Of a stretch of DNA of 39,708 bases, positions 3,594 through 39,332 are shown in pieces. The stretch is from a virus (taxonomy: Duplodnaviria; Heunggongvirae; Uroviricota; Caudoviricetes), in the IMG/VR virus record IMGVR_UViG_2909288124_000005, positions 1-39,708 of that record. One strand, 5' to 3'. The position numbers were made by a program, and so were the translations under genes. Below the pieces are notes generated by a model that was not told the DNA's origin, ran no database searches, and saw nothing but the letters and a program-made list of their open reading frames with translations. Position 1 is the stretch's first letter; each line of letters begins with the position of its first letter.

Positions 3594-3720
3594 TTTATTC
3601 TCCACGTATATGCGCTGCACCGCGCTGAATTCTGGTAAAAGGAAGCCCTCACTATCCGGCGATTATTGAGTAAATTATGTTTCCATAAATGCCCCCGCAG
3701 GGGCATTTGCAGTAATGAAA

Positions 3721-4545
3721 TCAGGCGGTGAAAGTACCAATAAAGGTTTCTACTTTGCTGTCTTTAAATTTCTCAACAAGCAGATCACGAAATTCGTTAG
3801 CCATTTCTTCCTGCACCGCTTCCAGCTGAATAATGCGCAGAACCAGTACAGGACGATCGCCAGTGATAATGCTGAGGCGTAATTTAAACGGACGTTCTTT
3901 AAGGCCTTCAAACGGAACGCATTTAAATTCAAATGCCACTGGCATAATGTCTTTGGTCTTCGCTTCGACAGACTCCATCAGGGAGCGTTTGCCGCTGAAG
4001 TCATTATCTTCAAAATCAGCGGTCTGGTTTGCTTCAATCGTGATTTTACGGACTGCCGCAGCCGCTTTTGTTGCCTGAATGGCGTCACCATTCGCATCAA
4101 AGCCCACAAGGTAGTCGGCCCAGTCTTCAATCCATTCTGCCAGTGACTTCTGGGAGTTACGCTCGCCGTTAACAGACAACAGAGCAGAGAACGGTGCTGT
4201 CTTTTTCAGTTTGAGAGTGGCGGTGTTATCTGCGTGACCTGGTTCATCAATAGTACCCAGGTTAAGCACACTAACGGCACGCATATTATCAGCATCGATA
4301 AAGCAGCGGGTGCCTTCATCTGCAAGATCTTTAGAATAACGGGTAAAATCATCGATGCTGGCAGTGGAAAGCGCGCCACGGAAACGGAAGCGATTTAAAT
4401 TAAATTTTTCCAGATCATGAATGCGGAAATTCTCAGGCAATGCCACAGCATCGGCACCAATCTTACTGATAATTTCATTAACACCCTGAGCAGAAATAAG
4501 GGCATGGATTTGATTAATTGCGGTTGCGTCTAAGTTCTGAGACAT
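3721..4545 (-). CDS. DUF2303-like phage protein (YfdQ-like)
   Basis: 274 aa, same length and position as CPS-53 yfdQ by recollection. Confidence 0.45.
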
Positions 4546-4610
4546 AATAAGTCCTCACTATATAAAGATATTCAGTGATGAGATAAATAATCGGTTAATT
4601 AAGAACGATA

Positions 4611-4973
4611 TTAATGACCTGCTGCGCGGAGTTTTCCGTCAGGTTCACCGGCAAGAGTCAGTAATTGTCCCTGGTCTTCCTGCAGAATAGTCAGGCGACC
4701 ACCGCGATTGACATACATCGGCGTTTCGGTGGTGTCTTCTTCGGAAATTTTCCCGCGGTTAGTCGGGCGAACATATGAGAGTTTGTGTTTGATTTTCACA
4801 CGGTTCTCATCAAATGGTTCGATTTCCAGGTTGAGTGAGACCTTACCTTTGGTTTTCGTGTTCATCACACCTGAAGCGACTTCACTGAGAACTGCGCCGA
4901 TTTTGGTTTCAAATACGCCGCCGTCCAGCTCCCCGATAAATGCCTGCACATCAGTACTGCGTTCGCTAGCCAT
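4611..4973 (-). CDS. Hypothetical phage protein (YfdP-position), 120 aa
   Basis: Start chosen at ATG 4973 preceded by GAGGAG RBS; the 100-codon in-frame upstream extension looks non-coding. Confidence 0.45.
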   Translation of the reverse strand: MASERSTDVQAFIGELDGGVFETKIGAVLSEVASGVMNTKTKGKVSLNLEIEPFDENRVKIKHKLSYVRPTNRGKISEEDTTETPMYVNRGGRLTILQEDQGQLLTLAGEPDGKLRAAGH

Positions 4974-5410
4974 TTTGCTGCTCCTCATCATATCGACCCT
5001 GCAAGGTCGGTTGGTTTCTCCACAAAACAGAGAAGAACACCTGCGGTGGCAGCCGCCCGGATGGATTGGGTTATGAGCCCGTCGTCCGGTGATGCTCTTC
5101 TCTGTTTTGTAAAAAGGACGGTACCAGCCGGAAGCAAGGGTACAAGCTGGTACCGCCAGGACTACACACAGCATAAAGTTGTGGTGCCGGGTGCCTCCCG
5201 GTGCCTGGCGAAGGTTGCACACCAGGCGGGTGGGTATCCACAGAAGGTCGACTGTCAGCCTCAACCTTAACCCGCGTGCGCTGAGCCGCATTCACCACAA
5301 CGCCAAGGATTCTCTTTGGTTGAAAATACTTAGCTGTTATGTGCCTGTCTTTTCACCACTTCAGGCTCGGTGGTATCCTTTTAAGCCCGTATACATAAAA
5401 GGAAAATCAA

Positions 5411-5656
5411 ATGACTTTTGATGAAAAAGAACTTGATAATGCAATTAATAAAATCATCGTAACGTCGCTCTTTTCCTGTCTCAGCGACACTCAGCAGAAA
5501 CAGTTCTACGAATCGGCTTTCAACATGATCGAGCGTTGTTGTTTCTGCGATGCCGACGAGTTACCTGAAAAAATCAGGAAACAGTTGGCTGATGCTCTTC
5601 GAGTGCGACTTTCTGACCAATTTTCTGAAATGTGCTCTCCGAATTTGGACAAATAG
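5411..5656 (+). CDS. Small hypothetical protein (81 aa)
   Basis: Protein-like composition, AAAGGAAAA upstream; its 3' end converges with and overlaps the 5574..5849 ORF. Confidence 0.3.
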   Translation: MTFDEKELDNAINKIIVTSLFSCLSDTQQKQFYESAFNMIERCCFCDADELPEKIRKQLADALRVRLSDQFSEMCSPNLDK

Positions 5657-5849
5657 AAAAAGGCCATTTCCATTCAGGGTCTGATGGAAATACTTCAGCC
5701 TGTTCCAAAGCACGGCGTAAAGAGAATACAACTCCAGCCATAATCTGATGTTTCCCATTGGTCCAGCTATCGCCGCTCTGATCTACAGGAGCGGCTATGT
5801 CGTATGACCAAACGACTTCACCACTATTGTTTAAAATCTGGACTTTCAT
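5574..5849 (-). CDS. Small hypothetical protein (91 aa), first gene position of leftward operon
   Basis: ATG at 5849 preceded by strong GGAGG RBS; an internal hairpin plus T-run at 5655-5691 makes its distal part uncertain. Confidence 0.35.
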   Translation of the reverse strand: MKVQILNNSGEVVWSYDIAAPVDQSGDSWTNGKHQIMAGVVFSLRRALEQAEVFPSDPEWKWPFSICPNSESTFQKIGQKVALEEHQPTVS

Positions 5850-6240
5850 TTTGTTCTTTAACCTCCAGATACGGGCGTTTAATGGCCCCGCCGAACAGCT
5901 CTTTTCCGCAATAGCTGCAATGTCTTTCGCGCATCAGCCTGCGCATTCACCACAACGCTGAGAGCACTTAGCCAGTTACGGCACCACACTTTGTCGCGGT
6001 TCCATAAATGCCCTCATCGTTGCACCCTGGTCTCTTCCCAGGTGTCAAACCGAACCGCCACGCTGGTTAGGCGTCTTATCAGCATCATCATTGACTTGCA
6101 CATTCCGGCTACCTGGTTTGTTTGCCCGAGCAAGGAGTGGATTGTCCCCTTTAACGTCCCCAGACCGCTAACGACGCATGTGCCATACGCCGTGTTACAA
6201 CCAAATTTTGTTTAATCTTGCCTGTGACATGTTTCTTTTA

Positions 6241-6255
6241 GATACATTATGTATC
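6241..6255. promoter_or_regulatory. Putative OL-type operator palindrome
   Basis: GATACATTATGTATC perfect palindrome; ATACAT half-site recurs between cI and cro. Confidence 0.35.
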
Positions 6256-6275
6256 TCAAGGGTACATTGTCAAGT

Positions 6276-6300
6276 ATAAAAAAACCTGCCGAAGCAGGTT
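6276..6300 (-). terminator. Intrinsic terminator downstream of cI
   Basis: AACCTGC-CGAA-GCAGGTT hairpin (6283-6300) followed on minus strand by T-run (6276-6282), 12 bp after cI stop. Confidence 0.55.
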
Positions 6301-6311
6301 ATAAATATTGA

Positions 6312-6986
6312 TTAGGCCTTTATTTTGTATCTTCTTGGTTTTCCTGAGAAAATTACTGTACCAATTATAGAGCAATTACCGTTGATCTTAATGTAAGGTT
6401 CAGGCCAGTTTGGGTTTAATGCTTTGAGGTAACGCTGTGTTCCATCTTCTATCAACCGCTTAAAGGTGGTTTCGCCTGTATCGTGCATCAATGCAATAAC
6501 GTCGTCACCGTGGCAGGCAGGGACTTCAGGATCTACAAAAATCATGTCTCCCGGGCGGTACTCATCAATCATTGAATCACCAATCACCCGCAAGATATAA
6601 GTCATTTCGCCACAGGGTACAGGGCAGGGATAAGTTTCTGCTGTGCTCAAATCAACCTCAGAATAGCCAACTTCTTTCCATGCTCCGGCCTGTACCCATG
6701 ATATGACAGGGACTAACGTTATTTGTTTGTTAGTAATTGAAACATCAGGTTTTTTTGTGATGTTTGTTGTCTGGTGTTCTTGATCAAGCCATCCGACAGG
6801 CAGGTCGAAACATTTTTCGATGTGCCGTGCCATGCTGTCACCGATATTTTTAGTAGCACCATCTCCCATAAACCTGCTGGTCTGGGTTGGCTCGCGATCA
6901 ATCATGGTGGCAAAGGAAGAATTCCCGCCAACACCATCTCTCAGTTTTCTGGCGTTAGACCGCCGGATGTCATGGACTGTTTTCAT
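6312..6986 (-). CDS. CI-like repressor, HTH plus S24 (LexA-like) autopeptidase
   Basis: C-terminal GDSM...GD...VDP motifs typical of S24 peptidases; divergent from Cro-like gene. Confidence 0.8.
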   Translation of the reverse strand: MKTVHDIRRSNARKLRDGVGGNSSFATMIDREPTQTSRFMGDGATKNIGDSMARHIEKCFDLPVGWLDQEHQTTNITKKPDVSITNKQITLVPVISWVQAGAWKEVGYSEVDLSTAETYPCPVPCGEMTYILRVIGDSMIDEYRPGDMIFVDPEVPACHGDDVIALMHDTGETTFKRLIEDGTQRYLKALNPNWPEPYIKINGNCSIIGTVIFSGKPRRYKIKA

Positions 6987-7002
6987 AACGAAATTAAAAC
7001 CT

Positions 7003-7021
7003 TTGTACCGATAGGGTACAA
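7003..7021. promoter_or_regulatory. Putative OR operator palindrome
   Basis: TTGTACC-GATAG-GGTACAA perfect 7-bp inverted repeat 17 bp upstream of cI start. Confidence 0.4.
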
Positions 7022-7076
7022 GTATCTTGAAGGTTCATCTCAATCATGTAATATGTATATCGGAGGTACATATTGT

Positions 7077-7277
7077 ATGAAAGCGTATTGGGACTCTTTA
7101 ACCAAAGAACAGCAGGGCGAGTTGGCCGGAAAAGTTGGCTCAACACCAGGCTACTTACGGCTGGTTTTCAATGGTTATAAAAAAGCCAGTTTTGTGCTGG
7201 CTAAAAAACTTGAGCAATGCACGTCAGGTGCAATTACGAAATCTGACTTAAGACCGGATATCTATCCGAAAGATTAA
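7077..7277 (+). CDS. Cro-like HTH regulator (YdaS-like)
   Basis: ATG 7077 with GGAGG RBS at 7062-7066; 66 aa; divergent from cI across the operator region. Confidence 0.6.
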   Translation: MKAYWDSLTKEQQGELAGKVGSTPGYLRLVFNGYKKASFVLAKKLEQCTSGAITKSDLRPDIYPKD

Positions 7278-7308
7278 CAGAACACCTTCAATTTTTAACC
7301 ACAGAACG

Positions 7309-7872
7309 ATGAGGCTAACCGTGGGTAAGCATCACTGGAAAGTAGAAAAACAGCCTGAGTGGTACGTGAAAGCTGTCAGAAAAACTATCGCGGCGTTGCC
7401 GGGGGGTTACGCTGAAGCTGCTGAGTGGCTGGATGTAACAGAGAACGCTTTATTCAACCGCCTTCGTGCAGATGGCGATCAGATTTTCCCGCTGGGATGG
7501 GCAATGATTTTACAGCGCGCGGCTGGCACTCACTACATTGCGGATGCTGTCGCACAGTCTGCTGGTGGGGTGTTTGTATCGCTTCCTGAAATTGAGGAAG
7601 TAGAGAACGCCGATATAAACCAGCGCCTGCTGGAAGTCATCGAACAGATCGGGAGTTACTCAAAGCAGATTCGTTCGGCAATCGAAGATGGGGTAGTGGA
7701 GCCACACGAGCAGACAGCAATTAATGATGAGTTGTATCTGTCAATTTCGAAGCTCCAGGAGCATGCAGCACTGGTCTACAAAATCTTTTGCGCTCCAGAA
7801 AAGAGTGACGCCCGCGAGTGTGCAGCTCCGGGCGTCGTGGCGTTTTGTGTCTGTGGAGAAACTAACGCATGA
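7309..7872 (+). CDS. CII-like phage regulatory protein
   Basis: Position immediately after cro; family assignment from memory only. Confidence 0.3.
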   Translation: MRLTVGKHHWKVEKQPEWYVKAVRKTIAALPGGYAEAAEWLDVTENALFNRLRADGDQIFPLGWAMILQRAAGTHYIADAVAQSAGGVFVSLPEIEEVENADINQRLLEVIEQIGSYSKQIRSAIEDGVVEPHEQTAINDELYLSISKLQEHAALVYKIFCAPEKSDARECAAPGVVAFCVCGETNA

Positions 7873-8705
7873 ACAGTTTAACGGCAAATAACCGTTTGTC
7901 GCAACAGCTGGTGGTCAGCGTCGCTGAACACCTGTTGTTACGGCATGAATGCAGATTACCAAATCACCTGGCTGTAAGTAACCACAGAGAACTTTACCTG
8001 ACTGTGGGGGGCGAGTTGTGCAGGAACTTAACCGCTGGTTTCGTGACGGAAGAGGGCTTTATGTCCATGTTATTCGTTGGGAGCCAGAAACACAGCGCGT
8101 TATCTATCTTCGCAAAGACTACCCGCATGAGTGCTTTAGTCCTTTGTGGAAATTCAGGCGTGATTTTGTTGAGTGTGAAGGACCACCAGCACATTGATTC
8201 TGCCATTCCGGGACGTTACACTGTTCAGGCACCTTATAAAGCGGGTGTCGGGATTGGCGTCCTGGAATTGCATACGGCGACAATTGGCGCGTTAGCGTCT
8301 TTTTTGTTGCTACAACTCAGCTATACCCAAATTATGGTGGGCTGGGTGGGGGCACCGAAAGGTGCGCCGGTTTCCGTATGCGCCGGTTACGCCAACCCTG
8401 CTCAGTTCACCACCAGCGAAATTGGCGTTTCCGGTGGTGGAAGTTATCCATTGCATACGGAGGCTGCCATCATGGCTACTGTCCCAGCCCTCACTCGTCT
8501 GAATGATGAAGACTTACATAAACTCAGTTATGTAACAACTGCACTACGTGCTCTGCGCAAGGTAACTCTTTCGGATCCGCAGGCGCATCAAGTTCTGGTA
8601 GAAACCCTTCTTAACTTGCAGGCTGAACGTATTCGTCTGGCGGATAAGACTAATTTTCATATTCACCGTCTCCTGAATATCAGCGGAGGGCATCGTCATG
8701 CTTAA
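7869..8705 (+). CDS. Hypothetical protein (278 aa)
   Basis: Long open frame, start overlaps upstream stop (ATGA) and end overlaps next start; no domain recognised. Confidence 0.4.
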   Translation: MNSLTANNRLSQQLVVSVAEHLLLRHECRLPNHLAVSNHRELYLTVGGELCRNLTAGFVTEEGFMSMLFVGSQKHSALSIFAKTTRMSALVLCGNSGVILLSVKDHQHIDSAIPGRYTVQAPYKAGVGIGVLELHTATIGALASFLLLQLSYTQIMVGWVGAPKGAPVSVCAGYANPAQFTTSEIGVSGGGSYPLHTEAAIMATVPALTRLNDEDLHKLSYVTTALRALRKVTLSDPQAHQVLVETLLNLQAERIRLADKTNFHIHRLLNISGGHRHA

Positions 8706-32122: not shown

Positions 32123-32547
32123 TGGAACTGTGGCTGACGGTGAACGGTAAACGCACCTGCGCCAGCGCACCGCTGGATCCGCTGACCCGCGCCGTGGTGA
32201 TTTCCCTGTTTACCTGGCGGCGGGCGGAACCTGATGACAATGCCGACGTCCCGATGGGATGGTGGGGGGATACCTGGCCTGCGGTACAGAACGACCGTTA
32301 CGGCTCCCGGCTGTGGCTGCTTCAGCGCAGCAAACTGACCAATCAGCTGGTGCAGACGGTAAGGGGATATATCCGCGAATGCCTGCAATGGATGATTGAT
32401 GACGGCGTGGTGTCCCGTATTGATCTGGATATCCGCCGCACCGGGATTAATGAACTGGGTAACAGTATCACTCTCTGGCGTCGTGACGGACCGGTAATGA
32501 TTTCTTTTGATGATCTGTGGAGTGCGATAACGCATGGCGGACAGTGA
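32119..32547 (+). CDS. Baseplate protein (Mu gp46-like)
   Basis: Gene order and size. Confidence 0.55.
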   Translation: MMELWLTVNGKRTCASAPLDPLTRAVVISLFTWRRAEPDDNADVPMGWWGDTWPAVQNDRYGSRLWLLQRSKLTNQLVQTVRGYIRECLQWMIDDGVVSRIDLDIRRTGINELGNSITLWRRDGPVMISFDDLWSAITHGGQ

Positions 32548-33592
32548 ATTTCAGCGCCCGACGCTGGCAGAAAATATCAGTATGCTCCGTAACGATTTAT
32601 TCGCCAGGCTGGACGTCAGCGACACGCTCCGGCGCATGGATGAAGACGTGCGGGCAAAGGTGTATGCGGCAGCGCTGCATACGGTTTACGGGTACATCGA
32701 TTATCTGGCAATGAATATGCTGCCTGACCTGTGCGATGAGTCCTGGCTGGCGCGACATGCTGCGATGAAACGGTGTCCGCGCAAGGGGGCCACGGCTGCC
32801 AGCGGGTATATGCGCTGGGAAGGTGTCAGCGATGGCCTGAAGGTGACTGCCGGGAGCGTGATTCAGCGCGATGACCTGGTTCAGTATACGGCAACTGCCG
32901 ATGCAACCAGCTCCGGTGGTGTCCTGCGCGTGCCGATCGCATGCTCAAATGCAGGCGCGGTCGGTAACGCTGACGACGGTACGGCATTAATCCTGGTCAC
33001 GCCGGTGAATGGTCTGCCGTCTTCCGGTGTGGCTGACACCCTGACAGGCGGATTTGATACTGAAGAGCTGGAAACGTGGCGCGCCCGCGTCATTGAGCGG
33101 TATTACTGGACGCCGCAGGGCGGGGCTGACGGGGACTATGTCGTCTGGGCTAAAGAAGTGCCCGGCATTACCCGCGCATGGACATACCGTCACTGGATGG
33201 GAACGGGAACTGTCGGTGTGATGATTGCCAGCAGTGACCTGATTAATCCCATTCCGGAAGAATCAACGGAAACGGCGGCAAGACAACATATCGGGCCACT
33301 GGCCCCGGTGGCAGGCTCTGATTTGTATGTGTTCAGGCCGGTGGCACATACGGTGGATTTTCATATCCGCGTGACGCCGGACACACCGGAAATACGGGCT
33401 GCCATCACCGCGGAGTTGCGTTCGTTCCTGCTGCGTGATGGTTATCCGCAGGGAGAACTGAAGGTATCGCGTATCAGTGAGGCGATTTCCGGTGCGAACG
33501 GGGAATACAGCCATCAGTTGCTTGCACCGGCAGACAATATCTCCATTGCAAAAAATGAACTGGCGGTTCTGGGGACGATTTCATGGACGTGA
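32534..33592 (+). CDS. Baseplate J-like protein (Mu gp47-like)
   Basis: 352 aa following gp46-like gene. Confidence 0.75.
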
Positions 33593-34167
33593 CAAACGAT
33601 GATTACATCCGTCTGTTGTCGGCACTGTTGCCCCCCGGTCCGGCGTGGTCAGCCAGCGATCCGGCGATTGCCGGTGCGGCACCGTCATTAACCCGCGTTC
33701 ATCAGCGTGCGGATGCCCTGATGCGGGAGCTGGATCCGCGCACCACCACTGAACTGATAAACCGCTGGGAGCGTCTGTGCGGTCTGCCGGATGAATGTAT
33801 TCCCGCAGGGACACAGACCCTTCGCCAGCGTCAGCAACGGCTGGATGCGAAGGTTAATCTGGCGGGCGGCATCAATGAGGATTTTTACCTTGCACAGCTT
33901 GCTGCCCTGGGCAGACCAGACGCCACTATCACGCGATACGATAAAAGTACGTTCACCTGCTCATCGGCCTGTACTGACGCGGTGAATGCGCCGGAATGGC
34001 GGTATTACTGGCAGGTCAACATGCCAGCCGCCACCAACACCACCTGGATGACATGTGGCGATCCCTGTGATTCCGCACTGCGTATCTGGGGCGACACCGT
34101 TGTCGAGTGCGTGCTTAACAAACTCTGCCCTTCGCATACCTACGTAATTTTTAAATATCCGGAGTAA
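33583..34167 (+). CDS. Baseplate/tail protein (Mu gp48-like)
   Basis: Gene order; precedes tail fibre. Confidence 0.55.
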
Positions 34168-34170
34168 TCC

Positions 34171-34818
34171 ATGCATCGTATAGACACGAAAACCGCGCAG
34201 AAGGATAAGTTCGGCGCGGGTAAGAACGGTTTTACCCGTGGTAACCCCCAGACCGGCACACCTGCCACCGATCTGGATGATGACTACTTTGACATGTTGC
34301 AGGAAGAACTTTGTAGCGTGGTGGAGGCCTCCGGTGCCAGCCTGGAGAAAGGGCGGCATGACCAGCTGCTTACCGCACTTCGTGCGCTGCTGTTAAGCCG
34401 CAAGAATCCGTTTGGCGATATCAAATCGGATGGCACTGTGCAAACGGCTCTCGAAAACCTTGGTTTGGGAGAAGCGGCGAAAAGGGATGTGGGCACAGGA
34501 GATAATCAGATACCGGATATGGGAGCATTCGCTTCTGGTTCGGGATGGTTCAGGCTACCAGGTGGATATATTGTTCAGTTTGGCACTTTTTCAGGAAACA
34601 CGACCCGCTTTATCAGTGGACACTTCCCTATACCATTCCCTAATCAGCCGATGGTTTCAGTCAGTGTTATGTCTGATGCCGTTCAGTCAGATCCGTCGAA
34701 TCCTGCCCCGCAGGTTTTGTCTGTAAATTTTGAACATATCAGTAATTCAGCGTGGCGTGTGGCAACCAGTGATATCTCACAGCAATACAGATTCAGTTAT
34801 ATTTCGATAGGACGGTAG
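34171..34818 (+). CDS. Tail fibre protein; C-terminal part lies inside invertible segment
   Basis: Crossover repeat at 34461-34479 encodes LGLGEAA within the ORF. Confidence 0.7.
34461..34479. repeat. Left inversion crossover site
   Basis: TTGGTTTGGGAGAAGCGGC; exact reverse complement at 36009-36027; adjacent AAACCTTGGTTT palindromic core. Confidence 0.8.
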
Positions 34819-34820
34819 AA

Positions 34821-35261
34821 ATGCAGAAATATATTTTCAGTGCCGATAAAAATGCGTTTTTCCCTGTGGAGCTTAAAATCGCTTATCAGGAGTCCGGCGA
34901 ATGGCCCGATGATGGAATCGAAATTGACGACACTATTGCCGCCGAATTTATGAAGGAAGCACCAGAAGGAAAATACAGAGGTGTCATCGACGGAATGCCA
35001 GCATGGATTGATATTCCACCGCCAACTCATGAGGAACAAATTGCCGCAGCCGAACTGGAAAAGCAGCAATTGATTAATCAGATCAACGAACACATGAACA
35101 GCAGGCAATTGCCTGGTAAAGCGGCTATTGGTCGTCTGAAAGGTGAGGAACTGGCGCAATATAATTTATGGCTTGATTATCTGGACGCACTGGAACTGGT
35201 TGATACTTCCGGTGCGCCAGATATTGAATGGCCTACGCCTCCGGCAGTTCAGGCCAGATGA
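34821..35261 (+). CDS. Tail fibre assembly protein
   Basis: PPPTHEEQIAAAE...W..YLDAL...DTSGAP motifs. Confidence 0.75.
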   Translation: MQKYIFSADKNAFFPVELKIAYQESGEWPDDGIEIDDTIAAEFMKEAPEGKYRGVIDGMPAWIDIPPPTHEEQIAAAELEKQQLINQINEHMNSRQLPGKAAIGRLKGEELAQYNLWLDYLDALELVDTSGAPDIEWPTPPAVQAR

Positions 35262-35649
35262 CATCAGGGGCCGTTGACGTATCGACGGCTTTCACCGCTT
35301 TTTTATGCGCCATCCACTCAGACAATTTCGCTTTATCCTCGTCACTTATATCGCCGAGCATTAATTCAACCCGCCAGTCGGCGGTTACTTCGTCAATCTG
35401 CTGTAGCCGTTGCTGGCGATATTGTTCTGCCGCCGCTATTTGCTCTTCATGCGTTGGAGGCGGCGCATCGACCCATGCGGGCAGTCCAGTGCTATCTGCA
35501 CCAAGCATTTTACCTTCAGGCCAGGCAATACCAGCAAATTGGTTGTAGAGGTTAACACTGATTTCAATAGCTGATTCAGGAATAAACCTGCTTTCAGGTT
35601 CAATATAAAATCCGTTATCAACGGCGTCGTAAAAGTATCTTGTTTTCAT
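35233..35649 (-). CDS. Alternative tail fibre assembly protein
   Basis: Same motifs, opposite strand inside invertible segment. Confidence 0.7.
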   Translation of the reverse strand: MKTRYFYDAVDNGFYIEPESRFIPESAIEISVNLYNQFAGIAWPEGKMLGADSTGLPAWVDAPPPTHEEQIAAAEQYRQQRLQQIDEVTADWRVELMLGDISDEDKAKLSEWMAHKKAVKAVDTSTAPDVIWPELPEA

Positions 35650-35650
35650 G

Positions 35651-36022
35651 TTAATAACCTATTGCGAATAAACAACCGGCAGCTGAAGCACCCGCCCATG
35701 AAGTCCCATTAGTTGTTCTTAAAACTCGAACTTTGACTGTCGTTCTGGTAGAGCCACCAATATCGAAGCCCCACGTTGTGCCGGCCGATCCATTCCACGA
35801 GCTAGCAGAAGCACCTGAGTCAATCGCAGTGGCATGAAACAGAGCGTTAGGAAATGCCATAGGTAATGTCACGGTTGCTACTCCAGTCGAATCGGAAAGA
35901 AATCCAGAGACCCACTGGAAAATGATATTTTGTTCAACCCCACCAATTAAAGCCGGGATCAATATTCTCCCGGTATTACCCGTTACCCCTACAGCAGCGC
36001 CAAGTTTTGCCGCTTCTCCCAA
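35651..36022 (-). CDS. Alternative tail-fibre C-terminal segment (promoterless until inversion)
   Basis: Begins in-frame with the right crossover repeat encoding GLGEAAK, same as the fibre gene at the left site. Confidence 0.65.
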   Translation of the reverse strand: MGEAAKLGAAVGVTGNTGRILIPALIGGVEQNIIFQWVSGFLSDSTGVATVTLPMAFPNALFHATAIDSGASASSWNGSAGTTWGFDIGGSTRTTVKVRVLRTTNGTSWAGASAAGCLFAIGY

Positions 36023-36027
36023 ACCAA
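36009..36027. repeat. Right inversion crossover site
   Basis: GCCGCTTCTCCCAAACCAA, reverse complement of 34461-34479. Confidence 0.8.
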
Positions 36028-36098
36028 CCTTTCAAATATTTTTCTGAATCAGGTGATATTTCGCCTCTTCTCCTGTTTTTACAACAGGAGAAGCACTC

Positions 36099-36662
36099 AT
36101 GATTTACGGGTATGTTCGTGTATCAACAAATCATCAGGATACAGAGTTGCAACGTCTTGCACTTGAGTCAGCTGGCTGTGAGCGAATTTATGAAGAATAT
36201 GCCAGTGGCAGAACAGCTAATCGCCCTGTGTTAAAGGAATTAATTACGGTGATGAAAAGTGGAGATGAGTTGATTGTCTGGAAGTTAGATCGGATAGGGA
36301 GAAATGTGCTGCATGCGCTATTGATGTTTCAAAATCTGCACGAAAAAGGTGTTAATTTTCGGAGTATTACAGATGGCGTAGACCTGAAAACAGCAAGTGG
36401 TCGCTATAATTTCCGTAATATTCTTTCTGCTGCGCAGTATGAATCTGATTTGAATAGCGAGCGAACTTTAGCTGGTTTGGCTATTGCCAGATCCAAAGGC
36501 CGGATTGGTGGGCGTAGACCGAAGTTTAGCGACGAGCAGTGGAGACAGATGGGAGCGCTCATAGCGGCAGGGAAATCACGGCGTTATGTTGCACGTATCT
36601 ATAACGTTGGGCTATCAACCCTATATAAACGATTTCCTGTTACTGGCATTCAAACGAAATAA
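36099..36662 (+). CDS. Serine DNA invertase (Hin/Gin/Pin/Cin family)
   Basis: N-terminal YGYVRVSTNHQD with catalytic Ser context, C-terminal HTH; adjacent to invertible segment. Confidence 0.9.
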   Translation: MIYGYVRVSTNHQDTELQRLALESAGCERIYEEYASGRTANRPVLKELITVMKSGDELIVWKLDRIGRNVLHALLMFQNLHEKGVNFRSITDGVDLKTASGRYNFRNILSAAQYESDLNSERTLAGLAIARSKGRIGGRRPKFSDEQWRQMGALIAAGKSRRYVARIYNVGLSTLYKRFPVTGIQTK

Positions 36663-36798
36663 TTTATTTAAAGAGTTATTTGTCTAATGTTGGAAGCCGC
36701 AGCCACGTCGTATGCAAGAACGTGCTGCGGCTGGCTGGAGAACTTTCGATAGTGCGAGTATTGAATGATTTCCAGCCGTTACCGATTTTACGTGTTAA

Positions 36799-37047
36799 TT
36801 AGTGAACAAACCACTCGTCAGCAGATTCCCAGGTATCTTTCAGAGTCTCCTGAACAAAAGTTTTTGCAGAATCCTTATCTGCGGTGCGTGTAACAGAAAG
36901 GCCATCGTTGCTGGTGGCTTTTACGATCACCTCTACATCGTCATAACGTTTACTGATGCGTCGGGTTAATTCTTCCTTTAACGCATCCACAGCACCGGTT
37001 GGCATTTTAGTCATTTTTTCTTTGGCTATGCAGATTTCAATACGCAT
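36799..37047 (-). CDS. DinI-like protein
   Basis: MRIEICIAK...[11 protein letters not shown] parallels DinI as I recall it. Confidence 0.7.
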
Positions 37048-37108
37048 AAAAGTCCCTCTATACTGTGTTTGTATACAGTACTATTTTTAACTGTATAGAT
37101 AAACAGTG

Positions 37109-38206
37109 TCAAGAGGCCTTATTTCTGCTCCTTTGGAGCTCTTCAAAACGATTATGTAAAGATTTCGGATACAGTTCGGTATATACCTGCCATAGCACGT
37201 TTAATGAACGATGCCCTGTAACCTGGGCGACTTCCTCAATACTAAAACCAGCCTCAAATAAGCGACTTGCCCCTTCTCTACGCAAATCATGGTATCGTAG
37301 ATCTTTAATACCTAATTTGCTTCTTACCCTCTGGAATCCCGCAGTAACAGAAGTGCTGTTATATGGAAAAATGAATTCTGATTTTTTGGGTTGTCGTTGG
37401 ACGATATCCCAGGCTTCCCCAAGCAAGGCTACTTTCATATGGTTGCCTTCCTTTTTACGTGGATCTTTCCTGTCTCTTACGAGTATGGATTTTTGTTCCT
37501 GATCGAGATCCTCCCATCGTAATCGGCATACTTCACCGATTCGCATACATGACCACACAGAAAATTTGAGGATATCAACGAACGGAATTTTTGAGCATTT
37601 ATGTGTAGATCGTTGTTGAAGACCTTCAATGAGCATGTCCAGTTCATCAGATGCCGGTCTACGATTACGACGATTTGATTTACCAATTAAACCAAGTTTA
37701 AGTAGATATGGACGAGCGGCTTTTGCTGGGTTTGATGTGTAATTAATTCCATATACAGGTTTGGCAGCATCCAGAACACTGCCAAGATAACTAACATCGT
37801 GGCTAACTGTAGCTGGACCTGCACCAGCGTTGTTTCTTAGCCTGCAATGTTCAATTACGTCATTTTCTGTCAGTTCAGATAGTTTGATCGCGGAGATGTC
37901 ACTATCCATAAGCAGTTCCAGCACATATCTTTTAGTACGGCCTGCTTTACCTCCGGCATTTGGGTCATTTAAATATTTGTGTAGTAAGTCACGGACTGTA
38001 AGTCCGTCAACTGCATTTGATGATGGAATGCCATATAGATCTAATTCCATCACTTTCTGTGTGCCCCATGTTTTGGCATGAGCATGTTTAGGGAATGTTT
38101 TACTTTCCCTGTAAGTGATAACACCTTTTTCTTTGATAATCACATTACAGCGATAGCGTGGTGTGCCATCGGATTTTAGTCGTTTCTCTATGTTATAGTA
38201 CGCCAT
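37109..38206 (-). CDS. Tyrosine integrase, dusA-associated type
   Basis: C-terminal R...H..LRR...Y catalytic pattern (RYHDLRR...GHRSL...Y); start 89 bp from dusA start, divergent. Confidence 0.9.
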   Translation of the reverse strand: MAYYNIEKRLKSDGTPRYRCNVIIKEKGVITYRESKTFPKHAHAKTWGTQKVMELDLYGIPSSNAVDGLTVRDLLHKYLNDPNAGGKAGRTKRYVLELLMDSDISAIKLSELTENDVIEHCRLRNNAGAGPATVSHDVSYLGSVLDAAKPVYGINYTSNPAKAARPYLLKLGLIGKSNRRNRRPASDELDMLIEGLQQRSTHKCSKIPFVDILKFSVWSCMRIGEVCRLRWEDLDQEQKSILVRDRKDPRKKEGNHMKVALLGEAWDIVQRQPKKSEFIFPYNSTSVTAGFQRVRSKLGIKDLRYHDLRREGASRLFEAGFSIEEVAQVTGHRSLNVLWQVYTELYPKSLHNRFEELQRSRNKAS

Positions 38207-38294
38207 TACACGACCTCGTTATTTCGGGTTCCCATAAAACGTGGGAACCTGTGCGGGAACCTAACGCGAGAAAAATAGCCTGAAATGTTCAAAA

Positions 38295-39332
38295 ATGCAC
38301 GATAATCATGAAACACAAAAAATTAATCAAACCAGCGTGATGCCTGAAAAAACTGGTGTTTACTGGAATTCTCGGTTTAGCATTGCCCCTATGCTCGACT
38401 GGACGGACAGACATTGCCGCTATTTCTTGCGTCTGCTTTCCCGCAATACGTTGCTGTATACCGAAATGGTGACCACAGGGGCGATTATTCACGGTAAAGG
38501 TGATTATCTGGCGTACAGTGAAGAAGAACATCCGGTAGCGTTGCAACTGGGCGGTAGCGATCCGGCGGCGCTGGCGCAGTGTGCAAAGCTGGCAGAAGCG
38601 CGCGGATATGATGAGATCAACCTGAATGTCGGCTGCCCGTCTGACCGGGTGCAGAACGGCATGTTTGGTGCGTGTCTGATGGGTAATGCGCAGCTGGTTG
38701 CCGACTGCGTGAAAGCGATGCGCGATGTGGTGTCGATTCCGGTGACGGTGAAAACGCGTATTGGCATCGACGACCAGGACAGCTATGAATTTCTCTGCGA
38801 TTTCATCAATACCGTTTCCGGCAATGGCGAGTGTGAGATGTTCATCATCCACGCACGTAAAGCCTGGCTTTCGGGGTTAAGCCCGAAAGAAAACCGTGAA
38901 ATCCCGCCGCTCGATTATCCGCGTGTGTATCAACTGAAGCGTGACTTTCCGCATCTGACAATGTCGATTAACGGTGGTATCAAGTCGCTGGAAGAGGCCA
39001 AAGCACACCTGCAACATATGGATGGCGTGATGGTCGGGCGCGAGGCGTATCAGAATCCGGGTATTCTGGCGGCGGTAGACCGGGAGATCTTTGGTTCCTC
39101 GGATACCGATGCCGATCCGGTGGCGGTAGTGCGCGCCATGTATCCGTACATTGAGCGTGAACTCAGCCAGGGGACGTATCTCGGCCATATTACCCGGCAT
39201 ATGTTGGGCTTGTTCCAGGGTATTCCTGGCGCGCGGCAGTGGCGGCGTTATTTAAGTGAAAATGCCCATAAAGCGGGTGCAGACATTAATGTGCTGGAAC
39301 ACGCGCTCAAACTGGTGGCGGATAAGCGTTAA
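38295..39332 (+). CDS. dusA: tRNA-dihydrouridine synthase A; 5' end probably prophage-supplied
   Basis: Dus-family sequence throughout; followed by pspG as in E. coli. Confidence 0.9.

Follow-up and report, generated by a model that had tools for sequence, protein, structure and literature searches.

The stretch of DNA analysed here (39,708 nucleotides, hereafter the window) carries an E. coli prophage at dusA, a mosaic with a lambdoid early region and an SfV-like late region. Within its late region lies a tail-fibre gene whose distal part is enclosed, together with two chaperone genes and a second fibre tip, between inverted repeats, and a serine invertase gene stands outside the right repeat. 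The features of this locus and of the flank that leads into the host chromosome are given below, one per line.

34171..34818, plus strand: tail-fibre gene in its present form, 215 aa; constant residues 1-96, repeat-encoded L97-A103, tip 1 from residue 105.
34448..34473, strand not applicable: predicted left crossover site, 26 bp, CTCTCGAAAACC TT GGTTTGGGAGAA; core TT at 34460-34461, within the Leu97 codon.
34460..36027, strand not applicable: predicted invertible segment, 1,568 bp with the two core dinucleotides included; breakpoints in relatives coincide with its ends.
34821..35261, plus strand: chaperone 1 (146 aa), the tail-fibre assembly protein that belongs to tip 1 (Pfam Caudo_TAP, E = 4e-34; PHROG 188).
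35233..35649, minus strand: chaperone 2 (138 aa), the tail-fibre assembly protein that belongs to tip 2 (Pfam Caudo_TAP, E = 2e-31).
35651..36027, minus strand: silent tip 2 cassette, 117 variable plus repeat-encoded residues (Pfam Gp53-like_C, E = 4e-9).
36014..36039, strand not applicable: predicted right crossover site, 26 bp, TTCTCCCAAACC AA CCTTTCAAATAT; core AA at 36026-36027.
36067..36093, plus strand: hairpin with a perfect 11-bp stem, CTTCTCCTGTT-TTTAC-AACAGGAGAAG; its 3' arm holds the Shine-Dalgarno sequence AGGAG (36086-36090).
36099..36662, plus strand: serine DNA invertase, 187 aa (Pfam Resolvase, E = 3e-36, and HTH_7); catalytic Ser9 in the motif GYVRVST.
36799-37047, minus strand: DinI-like gene, 3' of the invertase.
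37109-38206, minus strand: tyrosine integrase, abutting dusA.
38295-39332, strand not given: dusA; the flank from dusA to pspG matches E. coli at 98.8% identity.

The structural genes of the prophage are intact and include terminase, an HK97-type capsid, a contractile sheath, a tape measure and a Mu gp44-48 baseplate, and the Mu-type baseplate genes precede the fibre gene (Baseplate_J at 32534-33592, Gp48/YmfQ at 33583-34167). A tailocin was ruled out by the capsid, portal-region and terminase genes. The same dusA layout was found in phage SKA5 and in many E. coli chromosomes. The SKA5 phage genome holds a 123-bp dusA fragment, and thus the prophage apparently provides the 5' end of dusA. A comparison of the dusA junction with the first 2.5 kb of the window yielded no att direct repeat, and on its left the prophage apparently extends beyond the window. 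Phage homology begins only at about position 1083. Upstream of it, a 193-aa open reading frame (ORF) with a SocA/Panacea domain (1-582) overlaps a 156-aa ORF without Pfam match (579-1049), and a terminator-like hairpin comes after the latter; positions 1-1049 are possibly a Panacea-type toxin-antitoxin system or defence cargo. In the early region, Rfam matches above the gathering score to isrK (8229-8305) and to the C4 antisense RNA (8330-8417) indicate an antisense immunity element of the P1/P7 type.

The longest perfect inverted repeat at the locus, TTGGTTTGGGAGAAGCGGC, spans 19 bp at 34460-34478 and 36009-36027, and no comparable pair exists in the 39.7 kb of the window, in which about 0.003 perfect inverted pairs of at least 19 bp are expected by chance. 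When mismatches were allowed, the arms extended to 28 nt with 89% complementarity (34455-34482 and 36005-36032). The core-spanning 20-mer AAACCTTGGTTTGGGAGAAG occurred exactly twice in the window with up to three mismatches and not once in 100 shuffles. The initial annotation had described about 1.55 kb flanked by perfect 19-bp inverted repeats; this holds, and its right arm was exact, while the left arm, placed at 34461-34479, was one base off. The extent of the sites also had to be mended, as the functional sites reach 12 bp beyond the repeat and measure 26 bp each, built from two 12-bp half-sites around a 2-bp core. The cores, TT and AA, lie on opposite strands and are identical once the sites are aligned in inverted orientation, which is what the staggered 2-bp cut and 180-degree rotation of the Din-type mechanism (PMC3575834) demand. 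The left site carries AAACC-TT-GGTTT at 34455, the only occurrence of this core in the window, in the layout of the Mu gix sites, which agrees with the resemblance to gix/hix cores noticed earlier. The outer half of the right site is degenerate and deviates at two positions (AAAGG vs AAACC). Identical left sites were found in the e14 P segment and in the sister loci L001, L003 and L008, and identical right sites in L001, L003 and L004, of which L003 and L004 are flipped relative to each other. A shufflon-like multi-site system was ruled out by the presence of just two sites in the window.

The protein encoded by the fibre gene matches the tail-fibre PHROG 1396 at its N-terminus and Pfam Gp53-like_C at its C-terminus (residues 128-215). 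On the minus strand, an ORF listed at 35651-36022 encodes tip 2, so that the segment contains two tips of the Gp53-like_C type, each with its own Caudo_TAP chaperone, as had been proposed; the two tip-chaperone cassettes face each other convergently. The chaperones are 40% identical and the 3' ends of their genes overlap by 29 bp. Both strands of this overlap encode a W-P...P C-terminal motif. Comparison of tip 1 with tip 2 gave no significant similarity (E = 0.86), which is compatible with different receptors for the two tips; a difference in their specificity is predicted. Searching both fibre forms against PDB sequences returned weak matches only, to the short tail fibre gp92 for the tip-1 form (E = 7e-4) and to the Mu fibre S for the constant region of both forms (E = 0.03-0.07 and 0.07-0.11). 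NCBIfam gave nothing above cutoff for the five proteins of the locus.

The tip 2 cassette lacks its own start codon, and the TGA at 36032-36034, directly beyond the site, closes its frame; the cassette is therefore regarded as a promoterless, startless silent cassette. When positions 34460-36027 were inverted in silico, the constant 104 residues were joined in frame to tip 2, giving a product of 221 aa in place of the present 215 aa, and the in-frame fusion to the minus-strand tip that had been predicted was thus reproduced. The residues encoded by the repeat (L-G-L-G-E-A-A) are the same in both states.

The invertase gene starts 71 bp outside the right repeat and its ORF is intact, and the Resolvase and HTH_7 domains of its product bear out the serine invertase that the initial annotation had placed directly beyond this repeat. 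The best PDB match of the protein is Gin (3uj3, E = 2e-56), and in the alignment its Ser9 coincides with Ser9 of Gin, the catalytic serine of that enzyme (PMC3575834). Its length also fits the Din family, whose recombinases have about 185-195 aa, a catalytic serine near position 9-10 and a C-terminal HTH. Identity to PinE of e14 is 56%, to Cin 52% and to D108 Gin 51% (the last by tblastn), and every block conserved among Din enzymes, catalytic motifs included, is present. The E-helix, RYNFRNILSAAQYESDL vs RFFFHVMGALAEMEREL in the classical enzymes, is strongly divergent. At its start (residues 103-120 of the product of 36099-36662), R106 and Y114 stand where Gin has H106 and M114; the mutation M114V, which renders Gin Fis-independent, maps to the E-helix (PMC3575834). 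In the phage collection this invertase lineage was represented only by SKA5 (99.5%) and by a fragment in phi458.

The Shine-Dalgarno sequence of the invertase gene lies 8 nt before the ATG and is contained in the hairpin at 36067-36093. A 76-nt fold around this hairpin had a minimum free energy of -24.8 kcal/mol (z = -3.84). The hairpin is kept in a relative, L019, whose invertase gene region has 73.7% DNA identity to that of the window, with one compensatory change of C-G to U-A; it is identical in the flipping loci L003 and L004, and e14 and Mu have much weaker versions. The structure may act as a translational damper of the invertase, for which it is a candidate. A sigma-70 consensus scan from the right site to the invertase start found no promoter, and the regional match count equalled the shuffle expectation. 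In gin, cin, hin and pin, a Fis-dependent recombinational enhancer acts in cis from within the 5' end of the invertase gene. A Fis-consensus scan of the invertase 5' end gave many equal-scoring candidates, as it did in pinE and gin, the consensus being too degenerate. Inversion here presumably depends on Fis and on such an enhancer at the 5' end of the invertase gene as well.

Relatives in public genomes speak for real flipping. The sister dusA prophage of the mouse isolate E. coli M8 and that of the near-isogenic mouse isolates SK6988 and RSHH22 differ over 8,384 bp only by a precise 1,827-bp inversion and one SNP. This inversion is bounded by the shared repeat TTGGTTTGGGAGAAG, its outermost possible breakpoint is the TT core, and in these loci both crossover sites and the first ~400 nt of the invertase gene are identical to the window. 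An exact-sequence look-up of chaperone 2 further located the whole 1.57-kb segment, 97-99.8% identical, in a P2-like prophage, where both orientations occur: L015 has the constant part joined to tip 1, L017 and L024 have it joined to tip 2, the flanks are 99.6-99.9% identical, and the breakpoints fall precisely at the repeat edges. Other enzymes of the Pin family, acting in trans, could have produced the flips in these relatives. Of the 54 collection blocks in which the look-up located chaperone 2, 24 have a longest contig of under 2 kb, which is close to the length of the segment; short-read assemblers yield such contigs when the two junction types occur together in a sample or when it contains the segment twice.

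Among 5,426 complete E. coli genomes, tip 1 was fused to the constant part in 18 and silent beside the window-type invertase in 44, and tip 2 was fused to the constant part in 2. The junction of tip 2 with the invertase occurred in 0 of the 5,426, and the exact degenerate junction pattern for tip 2, in either state, had no match in the genome or metagenome contig collections. A whole-region search of the complete E. coli genomes in both orientations returned none with at least 80% of the region in one place, and the flipped isomer of the exact locus was consequently not found there. The initial annotation had held that its reading would fail if only one orientation were ever observed and the invertase were inactive; a single orientation is contradicted by the flipped sister dusA locus and by the segment in the P2-like prophage, and the dusA prophages with the window's own cassette pair (the window, L016 and L018, the last in assembly GCA_017758905.1) show one state. 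The far junction of L016 is anomalous. At 3623-7915 of this draft (GCA_051023115.1), the tip-2 end of the segment is joined to the dusA-prophage invertase, and the tip-1 end forms an in-frame fusion with a lambdoid side-tail-fibre gene (1,027 aa) adjoining lom. Either an invertase has inverted DNA between sites in two different prophages, or the draft was misassembled across the 1.57-kb segment that they share.

Taken together, we consider it very probable that the locus is a two-state inversion switch of the Din type (Gin/Cin/Pin/Hin) in the tail-fibre gene of an SfV-like myovirus prophage with a Mu-type baseplate. The e14 segment, which has the identical left site and the same constant region, is invertible by experiment, and this was counted in favour of a switch. 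The invertible host-range segment proposed in the initial annotation is thereby supported. As a mechanism, transcription of the late operon would read from the baseplate genes into the fibre gene, the first ~97 codons of which lie outside the segment. The invertase would bind both 26-bp sites and make staggered cuts at the central TT/AA, and rotation and religation of the ends would flip 1.57 kb. In the present state, the constant part with tip 1 would be co-transcribed with chaperone 1; in the inverted state, the constant part would continue in frame into tip 2 and be co-transcribed with chaperone 2. Lacking its own start codon, and with its frame ending directly past the site, the cassette not in use would stay silent. 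With such two-state switching, a lysogen population would release virions with two different receptor-binding tips, a form of host-range bet-hedging.

The window's own copy, represented by one sequence of the locus in one orientation, probably still flips. Unlikely in our judgement is a frozen relic, in which the architecture of an invertible segment persists and this copy flips no more, whether through the change of Q to R in the DNA-binding domain of the invertase, through very low expression due to the hairpin over the ribosome-binding site, or through a lost enhancer function. Such a state would fit the single orientation in which the cassette pair is seen in dusA prophages, the strong hairpin over the Shine-Dalgarno sequence with no consensus promoter found, and the R in the window's enzyme, the single residue by which it differs from the enzyme of the sister loci L003 and L004, which have Q. 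Din enzymes, however, vary at this position (Gin has E and PinE has A), the ORF is intact with all conserved catalytic motifs, and the sites, the invertase 5' region and the hairpin are the same as in loci that have flipped. On these grounds we favour a functional switch over an arrested one.

A benefit to the host instead of a phage host-range function is more improbable still. Here inversion would generate a chimeric fibre protein in the lysogen that blocks the adsorption of other phages, as with e14 and PinQ; the e14 P segment, with the same left site and the same constant region, is inverted by PinE and PinQ and yields on inversion StfE2, which blocks T2 adsorption (PMC12529663). StfE2, however, needs a second frame entering from the invertase side, and here this frame is closed by the TGA at 36032-36034. 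No second chimera can therefore form, and the PinQ/StfE2 defence mechanism of e14 is not directly transferable. The prophage moreover looks structurally complete and not cryptic, a close relative has been deposited as the genome of phage SKA5, and the fibre genes belong to the late operon. A slim chance, about that of the arrested copy, is given to the idea that the invertase lineage (the window, SKA5 and the L019 relative) forms a distinct Din sub-lineage with regulation of its own, be it natural independence of Fis and the enhancer, a different flipping rate through translational control, or action in trans on the sites of other prophages. Activity in trans would account for the L016 junction, in which tip 1 is fused to the lambdoid Stf. 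The two-state host-range switch remains our preferred reading.

In L011 and L012, the DNA of the invertase, DinI-like and integrase genes shows 100% identity to positions 36028-38250 of the window (2,223 bp), including the Q-to-R change and a 7-bp deletion after the stop codon, and the cassettes are unrelated; an identical flank beside completely different cassettes implies a very recent cassette replacement. Across L001, L002, L006, L007 and the window, tip 1 with chaperone 1 has at least four different partners, and tip 2 with chaperone 2 was found in SfV-like, P2-like and lambdoid (GpJ) contexts. Unrelated cassettes have in common only the repeat at their outer ends and a central block of about 42 bp at 35233-35274, in the overlap of the chaperone genes, which is 88-93% identical in L001-L005 and L011-L013. 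We infer that half-segments may be exchanged by homologous recombination at their conserved ends, with the block at 35233-35274 as the putative joint. From the comparison, the 1.57-kb segment passes whole between SfV-like and P2-like tails, each of its halves is exchanged separately with 100% identity kept in the flanking DNA, and the locus is a clean case of the long-known mosaic evolution of tail fibres.

The value of the finding is practical rather than conceptual. A single assembly displays one of two receptor-binding tips, and the silent tip is commonly annotated as a truncated "gp53-like" ORF; host-range prediction, prophage typing and annotation should therefore treat the fibre as two-state.

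The features that define an invertible tail-fibre segment of the Din family and can be tested on the sequence are present at the locus, which is very probably an ordinary switch of the Gin/Pin type with the same design as the well-studied Mu G and e14 P segments. With the e14 P segment of E. coli K-12 (stfP-tfaP / tfaE-stfE, PinE), of which two orientation populations coexist in cultures (PMC4272514), it shares the gene order ymfQ, fibre, chaperone, inverted chaperone, inverted tip, invertase. The two loci have the same left 26-bp site, their right sites share the inner half and the core and differ in the outer half, and the first 15 bp of the repeat (TTGGTTTGGGAGAAG) are common to both. Fibre residues 1-101 are 100% identical to those of StfP, and the overlap of the chaperone genes is 29 bp in both. 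In contrast to e14, the invertase of the window, at 56% identity to PinE, belongs to a separate sub-lineage with its divergent E-helix, neither tip/chaperone cassette is that of e14, no frame runs in from the side of the invertase, and the prophage is intact at dusA, whereas e14 is defective and lies at icd.

The Mu G segment (Sc/Sv-U, Sv'-U', Gin) has the same plan of a constant N-terminus outside the segment, two convergent tip-chaperone cassettes and an invertase beyond the right site, and its gix sites, taken from the Mu genome at the annotated G-segment boundaries, share the 12-2-12 arrangement with AAACC NN GGTTT. The upstream baseplate is likewise of the Mu type, and Gin is the closest solved structure to the invertase. 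However, the G segment measures ~3 kb against 1.57 kb in the window, whose fibre, at 215-221 aa, is far shorter; about half of the invertase sequence is identical to Gin, the core is TT in place of TC/GA at the Mu sites, and Mu transposes, whereas the window's phage is a site-specifically integrating lambdoid/SfV mosaic. The C segment of P1 is related through Cin, 52% identical to the window's invertase. A P2-like prophage carries the same 1.57-kb segment at 97-99.8% identity and in both orientations, but its constant fibre part is ~357 aa and gpH-like, its tail module is different, and its invertase of 188 aa has no nucleotide match to that of the window. Judged by these sequence comparisons, the locus is closest to e14 P in its sites and constant region, to Mu G in its overall logic, and to the P2-like prophage in the content of its segment.
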